From an uncultured Candidatus Saccharibacteria bacterium (GTDB lineage Bacteria; Patescibacteriota; Dojkabacteria; J137): 64,000 nt of DNA. Shown here in pieces: positions 9,400-62,191 of the stretch (position 1 is the stretch's first letter; the number at the start of each line of letters is the position of its first letter). The stretch spans positions 492,939 to 556,938 of the forward strand of contig CAZSKK010000001.1 in NCBI GenBank assembly GCA_964607415.1, written 5' to 3'. Under the pieces are notes generated by a model. The model was given only the letters and a program-made list of their open reading frames with translations. It did no database searches and had not been told where the DNA came from. Both the position numbers and the translations under genes were made by a program.

Positions 9400-9903
9400 T
9401 TAATCACCTTGCAAAGTTGCAACCACATGATCCGCATTGTTTATAGGATTGGGTTTAGCATAAAGACCTATGAGTTTTGCGGAGGCAATAATTTTATCTT
9501 GTATTATCTTTTTTAATTCATCTTTCTTAGAGCCTTCTTTTAAGTTTAAAAAATCATTTAATGCATGTAGTTGAAAAAAATAACGATGAATACCACTAGG
9601 AGGACATGGCCCGTCATAACCAATATTCCCAAAATCATTAATACCTTGAACTGCATTCACAGGAACCTGACCTTCGTTTATAAAAATTTCAGACGGACTT
9701 ATATTCCAAACAAGCCAATGTGTAAAATCTTTGCCTTCCGCGTCTGGGTCTTCAACAATCAATGCTAGGCTATTAGTATTTTCTGGCACATCAGTAATTT
9801 GCAAGGCAGGGCTAACATCATACCCATCGCAGGTATGTTTTGAAGGTATATATCCATTGTTTTTGAAATTAGGACTTTGTAATTTCATAATTTCAAAAGG
9901 CAA
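9400..9903 (-). CDS. YbhB/YbcL family phosphatidylethanolamine-binding (Raf kinase inhibitor-like) protein.
   Basis: KLQSPNFKNNGYIPSKHTCDGYDVSPAL...DPDAEGKDFTHWLVWNISP...GYDGPCPPSGIHRYFFQLHAL is the canonical bacterial PEBP signature. Confidence 0.8.
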   Translation of the reverse strand: MPFEIMKLQSPNFKNNGYIPSKHTCDGYDVSPALQITDVPENTNSLALIVEDPDAEGKDFTHWLVWNISPSEIFINEGQVPVNAVQGINDFGNIGYDGPCPPSGIHRYFFQLHALNDFLNLKEGSKKDELKKIIQDKIIASAKLIGLYAKPNPINNADHVVATLQGD

Positions 9904-10088
9904 AATGCATCTACACTTACAGTATAGTACAGTAAACTTTGACTGTAAAGAAAAAGCTTCGAATACTCTTATCAGAGCAGAATAAAGTTATGATTAAGTA
10001 GGCCTATCCAAATAATTGCGAATTTATAGATTCTTTATCGAACTTGAGTTTTATAAAAACAAGATGGCATTACTTGGAAAAGTGTTGA

Positions 10089-12092: not shown

Positions 12093-12195
12093 CCATACAA
12101 AATAAAAATCTGTATGTGTGTTTAAGCCAAGCTTCGATTTCCTTAGCATGACAGTGGCTTTGGCTTACTCTGCCCTCAGGCTTCCGCACTTCAAA

Positions 12196-12262
12196 CCTTA
12201 TTGCTCTTTTGCCCTATTGCTCTATTGCTCTATTGCTCTTCACCTCTTTCGCTCTTACCGCC
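12196..12262. repeat. Short tandem repeat (TATTGCTC octamer, about 4 units with degenerate flanks) upstream of the ECF sigma gene.
   Basis: cttattgctcttttgccctattgctctattgctctattgctcttcacc. Confidence 0.6.
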
Positions 12263-20798: not shown

Positions 20799-20832
20799 GT
20801 ATCTGCTATCTGCTATCTGCTATCTGCTAAAC
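20799..20832. repeat. Heptamer microsatellite (TCTGCTA, about 4.5 units) in the thrS upstream region.
   Basis: agtatctgctatctgctatctgctatctgctaaac. Degenerate GCTATCTGCTAT-like strings also occur in other intergenic regions (around 500, 15020, 42040). Confidence 0.6.
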
Positions 20833-20887: not shown

Positions 20888-20913
20888 TCTTTGATTTTTG
20901 AGTATTTGGATTT
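20888..20913 (+). repeat. Hairpin with the conserved 13-nt loop TGAGCTTGTCGAA (stem CACCC/GGGT(T)). Two further copies flank the GIY-YIG gene.
   Basis: gtcaccctgagcttgtcgaagggttaa. The same loop sequence occurs at 61786-61816 (plus strand, A at loop position 11) and at 62168-62191 (minus strand). Confidence 0.5.
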
Positions 20914-21281
20914 GTTTTTTTATGTCACCCTGAGCTTGTCGAAGGGTTAATATTCGTGCTTAGTTATTCCCCCAAAGGGGTTGTTGTTGAAGCTGTTGTG
21001 AAGAATTTGCTAATCTTTTTCATTAAGTAAGATTATAGCTAAGTATATTCTAAATTTCAAATGGCAATAATTAAAGTTCAAATGTATCACAAGACTCAAA
21101 ACTACTTGCGAATTGAATTCTTATTAAACTTGTTGATCTGTGATTTGGAATTTATGAGTTACAAACTTACTTGTTACTAATTCGTTATTCTAATGATAAA
21201 ATGGATTAGTTTCTATTGGAAGCTGGCAGCTGATGGCTGTGAGCAAGCCTTTGACATTTAACTATTAACTTGTAACTAAAT

Positions 21282-23301: not shown

Positions 23302-23667
23302 ATGCAAGTAAATAATCCATACAACAAAAAACTAGTCCATTACTCAAAAGACTTGCGCGCTAATGCAACACCAGGCGAAAGACTACTATGGAAGTTTATA
23401 AACAAAAATCAACAAGGAGTTAAGTTTCGAAGGCAGCACCCACTTCTTAATTATATTGTAGATTTTTACTGTATAAAACTTAGACTTGCCATTGAAATTG
23501 ATGGCAGTAGCCACGATGAAGCTAAGTATTTATATGACAAGCGAAGACAAGTAGAGCTTGAATCTGTTGGCGTTACATTCCTACGCTTCACTGAGCATGA
23601 AACACGTTACAATATCGAAAGTGTATTGCAGACTATTGAGCTGAAAGTATGTGAATTACAGATTTAA
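23302..23667 (+). CDS. DUF559 / Vsr-like endonuclease-domain protein.
   Basis: ERLLWKFI...FRRQHPLLNYIVDFYCIKLRLAIEIDGSSHDE...VGVTFLRFTEHE fits the DUF559 restriction-endonuclease-like fold signature. Confidence 0.7.
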   Translation: MQVNNPYNKKLVHYSKDLRANATPGERLLWKFINKNQQGVKFRRQHPLLNYIVDFYCIKLRLAIEIDGSSHDEAKYLYDKRRQVELESVGVTFLRFTEHETRYNIESVLQTIELKVCELQI

Positions 23668-34689: not shown

Positions 34690-34842
34690 TATCTCGTAAT
34701 TCATAATTGTTAACTGCAAATCTACTCTCGTAATTCGTACTTCGTACCTGACAACCTCCCCTCGTAATTCTTATTTCGTAACTGGCAATCTCCCCTCGTA
34801 ATTCGTACTTCGTAACTCGTAATTGCACATGCTATACTTTTA
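34690..34842 (-). repeat. Array of CTCGTAATTC repeats (the reverse complement of GAATTACGAG; about 6 units) immediately downstream of the four-helix-bundle gene.
   Basis: atctcgtaattcat...ctctcgtaattcgtacttcgtacc...cccctcgtaattcttatttcgtaactgg...cccctcgtaattcgtacttcgtaactcgtaattgc. Confidence 0.6.
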
Positions 34843-61702: not shown

Positions 61703-61785
61703 TGTGTTGTCTTGAAACACGGCTTCTGTCAGGTAGATAAAACATTTGAAGATAACTAATCCTCTTATGTTAGGTTGCTTGTCGT

Positions 61786-61816
61786 GTCAGGCTGAGCTTG
61801 TCAAAGCCTGAACCCC
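61786..61816 (+). repeat. Hairpin with the conserved loop TGAGCTTGTCAAA (stem TCAGGC/GCCTGA), upstream of the GIY-YIG gene.
   Basis: gtcaggctgagcttgtcaaagcctgaacccc. Confidence 0.5.
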
Positions 61817-61871
61817 TAATTTTGTATTTTAATACAATGTTTAATACTTCTTTATCTGATAGAATTTCCTC

Positions 61872-62189
61872 ATGAGAAAATATGAGTTTTTTGTATATAT
61901 CTTACTATGTAACGATGGTAGCTATTATACGGGTGTAACAAACAATCTGGAACGTAGGCTGTCAGAGCATCAAAACGGAGAAGCAAGTGCTTATACAAAA
62001 CAAAGGTTTTCCAATAAAGTTGAAGAAAAAAGCTTCGTATTCAACGATATAAGGGAGGCTATAGCTTTCGAAAAACAAGTTAAGGGTTGGTCTAGGAAAA
62101 AGAAAAAGACCTTAATAAAAGATGACTGGCAAAATATCTCTAACTTATCAAAAACTGCTAAGTGTCATACTTCGACAAGCTCAGTATGA
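61872..62189 (+). CDS. GIY-YIG nuclease family protein (small UPF0213/YhbQ-like).
   Basis: EFFVYILLCNDGSYYTGVTNNLERRLSEH is the GIY-YIG core. Confidence 0.75.
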   Translation: MRKYEFFVYILLCNDGSYYTGVTNNLERRLSEHQNGEASAYTKQRFSNKVEEKSFVFNDIREAIAFEKQVKGWSRKKKKTLIKDDWQNISNLSKTAKCHTSTSSV

Positions 62190-62191
62190 CA
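62168..62191 (-). repeat. Hairpin with the conserved loop TGAGCTTGTCGAA read on the minus strand (stem GTCATAC/GTATGAC), overlapping the 3' end of the GIY-YIG ORF.
   Basis: gtcatacttcgacaagctcagtatgac. Confidence 0.5.

Follow-up and report, generated by a model that had tools for sequence, protein, structure and literature searches.

A stretch of 64,000 nt from a Dojkabacteria genome (contig CAZSKK010000001.1, positions 492,939 to 556,938; hereafter the window, by which we mean the whole of this stretch) contains three copies of a short hairpin with a conserved core. Two of them stand in inverted orientation around a small gene for a stand-alone GIY-YIG nuclease of the UPF0213/YhbQ family, and the third lies alone in the 5' leader of thrS, the gene for threonyl-tRNA synthetase (Table 1). 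A sequence-only reading of the window had first remarked on these hairpins as three stems sharing one conserved 13-nt loop, and they are indeed there, in numbers that chance does not account for. The 13-mer TGAGCTTGTCRAA has three exact matches in the window (20931-20943 and 61793-61805 on the plus strand, 62171-62183 on the minus strand), compared with a mean of 0.26 in dinucleotide-preserving shuffles, and allowing up to three mismatches yields no matches above chance level in the window. A covariance model trained on copies unrelated to the window, and then run on it, finds all three (E 3e-9 to 1e-6). The first copy had been placed at 20888-20913, which is wrong by about 35 nt.

The three copies have the general form TGTCA-NNN-TGAGCTTGTC(G/A)AA-N'N'N'-(TGAC), in which the 5' tag TGTCA is common to all and its partner TGAC is present in two. 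They differ only in the three pairs adjacent to the core (CCC/GGG, GGC/GCC and TAC/GTA), the core of the upstream cassette copy carrying in addition a single G-to-A change. The stems are thus complementary and variable, as had been claimed, but they are not completely different, since the tag is shared and only three pairs vary. The bases 3' of the paired stem are TAA at the solo copy and ACC at the upstream cassette copy; the downstream cassette copy pairs out to its tags, and TGA comes next on the hairpin strand. No gene-less inverted dimer is found within the window.

Table 1. Hairpin copies and cassette features of the window (bit scores from the covariance model).
Feature	Position	Strand	Description
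Solo hairpin	20923..20949	+	TGTCA-CCC-TGAGCTTGTCGAA-GGG-T(TA); thrS 5' leader; 39.9 bits
Upstream (forward) cassette hairpin	61785..61811	+	TGTCA-GGC-TGAGCTTGTCAAA-GCC-TGA; 31.1 bits
Conserved cassette leader	61822..61865	+	palindrome 61822-61837 and extended -10-like TGATAGAAT 61857-61865
GIY-YIG nuclease gene	61872..62189	+	105 aa; UPF0213/YhbQ (prokaryotic Slx1-like, stand-alone) family
Downstream (reverse) cassette hairpin	62163..62191	-	minus strand TGTCA-TAC-TGAGCTTGTCGAA-GTA-TGACA; outer stem 8-9 bp; 40.1 bits
Candidate decayed fourth copy	12123..12155	-	TGTCA-TGC-TAAGGAAATCGAA-GC(T)TG; intergenic, 30 nt past the stop of an open reading frame (ORF); weak, 18.1 bits, rough E ~0.008

The nuclease gene and its cassette

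The cassette runs from 61785 to 62191 in the order tag-hairpin, putative promoter/operator, nuclease gene, hairpin-tag, with an ABC-2 permease gene on one side and an RluD-like gene on the other. Its protein is a clear member of the stand-alone Slx1-like group (UPF0213/YhbQ/BH0048/EF2693; PMC1564403; PDB 1zg2, 1ywl), scoring 62.9 bits against PF01541 (Pfam cut-off 22.6) and matching 1zg2 (BH0048) and 1ywl at E 1.9e-21 and 4.8e-15, respectively. The catalytic tyrosines, arginine, histidine and glutamate are kept, Y9, Y19 (also Y18), R29, H33 and E67 being invariant among 34 homologues. A UPF0213-type profile collects 23,489 clusters at 50% identity (E<=1e-3), and no homologue of the window protein occurs in 50,697 phage records. 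The two cassette hairpins are inverted around the gene, as the sequence-only reading had it; the downstream one, however, is not outside the gene, whose last eight codons (HTSTSSV) and TGA stop codon both come from the hairpin, the latter from its TGAC tag.

Between the upstream hairpin and the gene lies a leader that is kept in two related loci (L122 and L123; related loci are denoted by L and a number). It consists of a perfect palindrome, TTGTATT-TT-AATACAA, and a -10-like element that ends 6 nt ahead of the GIY-YIG ATG, and these are probably the operator and promoter of the gene; a simple sigma-70 scan did not detect the leader. An mRNA starting from this element may be leaderless. The palindrome resembles the E. 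coli LexA box, and regulation by the SOS response was considered and dropped, the Bacteroidetes LexA paper treating other motifs and another GIY-YIG protein (COG0847).

The cassette is syntenic in L121, which is of the same species, and in L122, where the GIY-YIG protein is 78% identical and the upstream hairpin has CCC/GGG in place of the GGC/GCC of the window, so that pairing is kept. A gene 71% identical is found at a different locus, upstream of mraZ, in L123, and here the homology with the window spans exactly from 61785, the T of the upstream TGTCA, to 62190 in the downstream TGAC, that is, from tag to tag. The downstream hairpin is kept in both L122 and L123. Relatives of the RluD-like gene at 54-58% identity have neither cassette nor hairpins; as empty sites for the cassette they are only suggestive, since synteny is not kept. 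Within the window species itself (L121/L205), homopolymer-length changes at L121 2122-2328 break the GIY-YIG frame in one sample, where a 68-aa ORF is called and the hairpins are unchanged; these breaks reflect either gene decay or assembly error.

Structure of the hairpin family

Structural counts were made on 211 distinct 33-mers and the formal covariation count on 114 sequences. The common form consists of a TGTC tag, an A, three covarying pairs, a U-A pair, tandem G.A/A.G, a G-C pair, a bulged U, a covarying C-G/G-C pair and a tip of 2-3 nt. The 13 nt once taken for an open loop are therefore a structured region, as both covariation and tip-insertion variants indicate. The three pairs adjacent to the core are Watson-Crick in 95%, 92% and 87% of the copies, with three to four pair types each, and the inner pair is C-G in 146 copies and G-C in 40. 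The covariation score is 0.419, compared with 0.121+-0.010 in shuffles, none of 500 of which reach the observed value, and with a maximum of 0.132 in slid controls, which supports the earlier proposal of a functional hairpin family with a covarying stem.

The outermost part of the 5' side behaves otherwise. Arm positions 4-7 pair in only about half of the copies, yet TGTCA is at least 90% conserved regardless of its 3' partner (T3, T5 and A7 of the tag each at least 90% in the 114 sequences), and because it is conserved though the arm pairs only half the time, we take it to be a sequence tag and not part of the stem.

Searches that leave part of the hairpin free give the same picture. A metagenome scan with GTCANNNTGAGCTTGTCGAA selects the 5' half and the core and leaves the 3' arm free; the free 3' triplet pairs in 148 of 164 independent metagenomic copies, against about 5% expected, so that stems in other copies do pair. 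A scan of viral contigs with CTGAGCTTGTCRAAG found at least 120 loci, where 88 of 133 matches have at least two further pairing bases per side (about 14% expected) and where lineage-specific outer arms recur, for example GTCAnn.. and CCGTTCGnn... The pattern TGAG-N-x(2-5)-N-TCGAA has 331 matches in the 1.41 Mb that surround GIY-YIG homologues, against about 43 by chance, and its free positions are C..G in 238 and G..C in 46.

Long insertions at the tip (L135, L173, L167, L337) fold into stable extra helices, at -12 to -13 kcal/mol in L173, L135 and L337. Two Chryseobacterium species (L136 and L189) have about 30 nt between TGAGC and CGAA (ACAGATGAAAAATCTGCGAACGAAAGTTCA) in the upstream hairpin, at ~9900-10000, and the orthologous site in sister species has a plain GGAGT tip, from which it follows that the tip tolerates or attracts insertions. 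Energy-based folding, whether as DNA or as RNA, predicts the outer stem only, with modest z-scores of -0.7 to -3.4; support for the proposed inner structure comes from the covariation and the insertion variants, not from folding energy.

Several known identities were tried and set aside. Intrinsic terminators do not fit, since no T-run follows any of the three window copies and there is no terminator-like call at either locus, in a scan that accepts loops of 3-8 nt only. With Rfam 15 at gathering score, the window gives two tRNAs only, and nine related loci give RNase P and a tRNA only; run by E-value on two small regions, it returned only chance-level or generic long-hairpin matches, and the Rfam searches lend no support to an identity with the Pedo-repair or Flavo-1 motifs. 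Conserved positions of the hammerhead and sarcin-ricin cores do not fit in a by-eye comparison. As for the kink-turn, the hairpins do have its GA/GA positions, yet the U and A beside these are able to pair and a 3-nt bulge is missing.

Linkage to GIY-YIG genes and copies without them

The sequence-only reading had proposed looking for an association with other GIY-YIG copies, and this association is strong. A protein-based scan with one genome per species gave at least 585 relatives, of which 80 loci were kept (84 GIY-YIG genes, ~1.4 Mb). They are mostly from Bacteroidota, with some from Ignavibacteria, Nitrospinota, Marinimicrobia, Peregrinibacteria and Brocadia and one from a deltaproteobacterium. 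A hairpin lies within 300 nt of 79 of the 84 genes, on both sides of 55, and 236 of 261 good hairpins are within 500 nt of one of them, a density about two orders of magnitude above that in the rest of the same loci. Orientation follows a rule, the nearest upstream hairpin being forward in 51 of 65 cases and the nearest downstream one reverse in 56 of 69. The link extends to a Sphingomonas plasmid, where the hairpins that accompany a GIY-YIG gene have the form CCGTTCAGGC-TGAGCGAAGTCGAA-GCC, with tag CCGTTCA and core TGAGCGAAGTCGAA, to Methylobacterium, with a long tip insertion, and to Planktothrix. As in the window, many homologues end in translated hairpin (PSTSSG, STGSG, FDKLR, LRQAQ, FDSAQPD, LSGVE), and the hairpins yield spurious ORF tails and mini-ORFs in many genome annotations, with peptides such as PSTSSG, LSLSKG, FDKLR and LRQAQ.

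The core variant tracks the protein clade. One variant is used on both sides of 41 of the 55 genes flanked on both sides, and two Chryseobacterium clades use GAGCGGAGTC and GAGG(T/C)TCTC, respectively. Two paralogues 8 kb apart in L126 have each their own hairpin type: gene 0 has TGAGC..GTCGAA, and gene 1, which is 37% identical to the window protein, lies within an array of perfect TGTC-ATCCTGAAC-TTG-GTTCAGGAT-CTC hairpins resembling a bacterial interspersed mosaic element (BIME). The second paralogue of L188 (gene 1) is flanked by TGTC-ATTTC-GACC-AAC-GGGA-GAAAT-CTA. These paralogues with their own types exclude simple genome-wide homogenisation. That the hairpins might be recognition sites for the nuclease, as the sequence-only reading had suggested, is supported by this pattern at the comparative level.

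Further arrangements around the genes were noted. BIME-like tandem arrays of alternating forward and reverse hairpins surround GIY-YIG genes at L161 9280-9950, L126 17700-19000 and L169 9830-12000, with a period of ~140 nt in L161 and ~135 nt in L126 (neighbouring hairpins ~67 nt apart). On the Sphingomonas plasmid (L336; NZ_CP155752.1, 2995-4043) the GIY-YIG gene and an RNA methyltransferase gene overlap at the start of the latter, and hairpins stand on either side of the two; a fusion of this GIY-YIG type to a TrmH-like methyltransferase has been described in Erythrobacter (PMC1564403). The Planktothrix homologue (L338; plasmid NZ_LR882964.1, 2992-3276), with its TGTCATTCTGAG... repeats, stands between an MmeI-type restriction-modification gene and the DISARM gene drmA, and is thus inside a defence island.

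Most hairpins are, however, found apart from the gene when the search starts from the hairpin. In a sample of 185 hairpins from 120 metagenomic loci, 3 of the 109 copies with enough flank (~3%) are within 300 nt of a GIY-YIG gene, the rest being intergenic solos or gene-less inverted dimers. Of these metagenomic hairpins 13.5% lie deep inside ORFs, compared with 70% of random positions; they are commoner past stop codons than ahead of starts (108 vs 49), and their orientation relative to the host gene is unbiased (53:55). Forward-reverse pairs fall into two size classes, gene-less ones of 52-113 nt and gene-bearing ones of 346-602 nt, and both have the ends T|GTCA...TGAC|A. A filled and an empty unit are adjacent within one repeat array in L159, and Mucilaginibacter dimers extend into terminator-like arms made of an A-run and a T-run. 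Homology that reaches a hairpin ends about 0-20 nt from the tag across all loci, orthologous loci excepted. Units have the inverted termini TGTCA...TGACA, and their flanks are T in 73 of 78 and A in 76 of 78, bases which may belong to the repeat and which suggest either a TA insertion target or terminal repeats of 5 nt. The comparison of the window copies to the terminal inverted repeats of a minimal GIY-YIG unit, accompanied by solos, finds support in the orientation rule, the tag-to-tag homology with L123, the gene-less dimers and solos, which far outnumber the gene-bearing units, and the lack of the solo copy in relatives at the orthologous spacer.

Viral contigs carry the hairpins as close inverted pairs between phage structural genes, and in viral loci the core also occurs with other tags (CCGTTCG...). 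In one viral contig (L100 3139-5374) two inverted-dimer units, mutually inverted, bracket a 2.1-kb segment with two ORFs, one of which begins inside a hairpin (MSKSRKTVMVRQAHHERL...); the segment could be composite or invertible. A separate element gives a clean filled/empty pair between L151 3378-3440 and L158 4116-4120: it is a 52-nt palindrome bounded by TGTCAC...GTGGCA, with what looks like a duplication of 5 nt (ATTTT), and it shares the TGTCA start with the hairpin family and not the core.

The solo copy of the window is a presence/absence difference, as comparison with orthologous spacers indicates. Its place in the thrS leader is some 25 nt past the stop of a Thr-rich leader peptide on the minus strand, and the asnB-thrS spacers of L215 and L214, whose ThrS proteins are 76-78% identical, keep the leader peptide and lack the hairpin, although the divergence is too great for a base-level junction. 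The contig of a 96%-identical ThrS relative (L212) stops short of the hairpin position.

The thrS leader has features of its own. The leader peptide MKKISKFFTTASTTTPLGE* (window ~20950-21010, minus strand) ends in a CCCC-TTT-GGGG hairpin, has equivalents in L215 (MKKLRIAFTTTTTTTP) and L214 (MSKIFLQFRTSTTPRG), and is preceded just upstream by a strong promoter-like site at 21060-21032 on the minus strand (TTGAAA-17-TATAAT, 11/12). The whole has the look of a threonyl-tRNA synthetase gene that Dojkabacteria control by leader-peptide attenuation, a mode that is, to our knowledge, unusual for thrS. Intergenic tandem repeats of three to seven copies of 7-8 nt units (TATCTGC, TATTGCTC, TAGCGTA, TCGTAAT and others) occur in the window at 20800-20829, 12199-12256, 486-511, 34796-34824 and elsewhere; the unit varies between relatives at one site, being CAGGTTA x4 in L212 and TATCTGC x4 in the window, and these repeats are a general feature of the genome that is not linked to the hairpins. 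An ORF of 121 aa with a DUF559 domain (Vsr-like endonuclease fold) lies 2.3 kb from the solo hairpin, at 23302-23667 on the plus strand, with no family hairpin beside it.

Comparison with known repeats and competing explanations

The family can be compared with repetitive extragenic palindromic (REP) sequences, their inverted doublets (REPINs) and the REP-associated tyrosine transposases (RAYTs) (PMC2817692, PMC3116915, PMC3337134). Common to both are short hairpins, scattered between genes, whose 5' tetranucleotide tag is conserved and unpaired; inverted, REPIN-like dimers besides solos, gene-less pairs being present here in many related and viral loci; one enzyme gene between two inverted copies, with many gene-less copies per gene; and a gene that is kept vertically at one locus for long. 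They differ in that the enzyme here is a GIY-YIG protein (UPF0213) and not a HUH/Y1 transposase, with no known covalent strand-transfer chemistry, in that the tag is TGTC(A) whereas that of RAYT systems is GTAG, and in that the hairpins have an internal conserved tandem G.A and stems that vary from copy to copy within a genome.

The closest match among published repeats is a superfamily of REPs described by Di Nocera et al. (2013), in which many repeats have the 5' tag CGTC "changed to TGTC", the stem of 8-9 bp starts with A-T, the loop has 4-5 nt, a short 3' tail has the consensus CCA, head-to-head dimers predominate and the hosts include Alphaproteobacteria, Bacteroidetes and Chlorobi (PMC3733652). 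TGTC stands ahead of all three window copies and about 90% of the 211 copies; the first A-T pairs in only about half of them, and there are eight stem positions if the two G.A pairs are counted, the tip then having 5 nt. In L126 the perfect-stem hairpins arrayed about the second GIY-YIG gene agree closely with what was published, stem and loop geometry included. Against this, the window type has G.A/A.G in place of two stem pairs, a bulged U and no CCA tail, CTC or CTA, not CCA, closes the hairpins of the L126 and L188 types, and a nuclease gene is tightly linked. Membership in the CGTC/TGTC-tagged superfamily, judged by the published description, is accordingly offered as a lead only. The 2006 survey of the GIY-YIG superfamily described the stand-alone Slx1-like bacterial group without a DNA partner or hairpin association (PMC1564403), and in the literature searched we found neither a function or DNA partner for the UPF0213 family nor a paper linking GIY-YIG genes to REP-like hairpins, the retrieved REP/RAYT papers making no mention of GIY-YIG.

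Our analysis is best read as pointing to a REP/RAYT-like system in which a GIY-YIG nuclease takes the place of the tyrosine transposase, and this system appears to vary a known kind of element in a way so far undescribed. Specifically, we give about an even chance to the proposition that the hairpins are a TGTC-tagged REP-like DNA family whose cognate stand-alone nuclease, of UPF0213/YhbQ type, is encoded between two inverted copies. Structure-specific GIY-YIG nucleases of the Slx1 type cut at junctions of single strand and duplex. The nuclease would recognise the folded hairpin in single-stranded or cruciform-extruded DNA by its unpaired 5' TGTC tag, its short variable stem and its conserved tandem G.A/A.G motif, and might nick at the junction of tag and stem. 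Host replication or repair, copying from a copy elsewhere, would then account for the spread of hairpins and inverted dimers and, now and then, of an entire cassette; since GIY-YIG enzymes are not known to perform strand transfer, spread would have to rely on the host in this way. The outcome would be many non-autonomous hairpins and few gene-bearing units, with the gene often long kept at one locus.

A number of points weigh against this proposal. The gene occupies the same locus across species (the window and L122; several Chryseobacterium species), which speaks for long vertical inheritance rather than frequent movement. No GIY-YIG nuclease is known to catalyse transposition, no target-site duplication was found at the forward-reverse pairs, and among the 80 loci there is no base-precise filled/empty pair for this hairpin type, loci at least 85% identical having given only unrelated insertions. 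None of 120 viral and proviral loci with the core has a GIY-YIG gene within several kb, and action in trans must be assumed there. The inner pairs of the hairpin go unpredicted by energy models. Cleavage and movement of the hairpin units, finally, are a proposal drawn from comparison of sequences.

The main rival is a homing process, which we consider rather unlikely though it deserves serious attention. It holds that REP-type hairpins of the host, with an origin of their own and a role such as that of mRNA 3'-end stabilisers or weak terminators, pre-exist, and that a selfish GIY-YIG cassette cuts gene-less dimers and is copied into them by double-strand-break repair, with the hairpins as short homology arms; the recognition step is common to this and to the REP-like reading, and only the agent that spreads the hairpins differs. 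Gene-less and gene-bearing units with identical termini, adjacent in L159, are what it would lead one to expect, as are the preference of the hairpins for gene 3' ends, the many copies without a nearby gene and the terminator-like arms of the Mucilaginibacter dimers. The specificity of variant to clade is equally expected of a homing enzyme and its target, and an HsdR gene has been reported into which such a GIY-YIG domain was inserted, apparently not long ago (PMC1564403). The free-standing GIY-YIG homing endonucleases (I-TevI and the Seg proteins of T4-like phages; PMC2988022) likewise have their domain in a small, selfish-looking intergenic gene. The window protein, however, at 105 aa has no C-terminal DNA-binding module or extension of the sort typical of homing GIY-YIG enzymes, belongs to another GIY-YIG clade and reaches only 19.8 bits with TIGR01453, the model of group I intron endonucleases (cut-off 56). 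A homing target is normally split, whereas both flanking hairpins are intact here, and homing leaves unexplained why hairpins sharing one core and a conserved unpaired tag are scattered over groups so far apart: the candidate phyla radiation, Bacteroidota and Alphaproteobacteria.

It is improbable, in our judgement, that the hairpins act in transcripts, as terminators, insulators, stabilisers or protein-binding sites that regulate or insulate the GIY-YIG gene, for instance by autoregulation. A conserved tandem G.A beside helices is a classic protein-binding feature of RNA, the hairpins lie mostly just past stop codons, the downstream window copy overlaps the 3' end of the GIY-YIG mRNA and the thrS leader transcript includes the solo copy, which is downstream of the promoter-like site. 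Yet the flanking copies are reverse complements of each other, so that an mRNA would hold the G.A form at one end and U.C/C.U at the other, and the upstream hairpin is probably outside the mRNA altogether, with a likely promoter between it and the ATG. Orientation relative to host genes is random, the unpaired 5' tag is kept on whichever strand has the G.A form, the window copies have neither a T-run nor a terminator-like call, and no Rfam family matches. A role at the level of DNA is favoured because of the inverted flanking copies, the random orientation, the tag that follows the G.A strand and the missing T-runs. Scarcely credible, by comparison, is a mere coincidence in which hairpins and small selfish genes both pile up in permissive intergenic regions with no functional link. 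The messy repeat arrays around the gene in L161, L169 and L126 might suggest as much, but such an account is at odds with the raised hairpin density near the gene, the fixed orientation rule, the paralogues in one genome each with its own hairpin type, and the repetition of the association in several phyla.

A wider proposal, which we regard as tentative and somewhat doubtful, is that throughout the bacteria the CGTC/TGTC-tagged REP superfamily has its dedicated enzymes in the GIY-YIG proteins of UPF0213/YhbQ type. REPs would then have entered a second symbiosis with an enzyme, independent of the HUH transposases and built on a structure-specific nuclease that recognises a tagged hairpin with tandem G.A pairs. 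If true, it would provide a function for a protein family that is very large and uncharacterised and would establish a new class of mobile or semi-domesticated element in bacteria, and the association with GIY-YIG genes may already propose a candidate for the missing enzyme of these REPs. The conserved cognate DNA hairpin that stands by nearly every gene is in any case a concrete candidate substrate for the large UPF0213/YhbQ family, members of which have solved structures. Confirmation would mean that REP-like repeats arose at least twice, with unrelated enzymes, and that transposase chemistry is not needed to sustain a dispersed repeat family, a GIY-YIG nuclease being enough.

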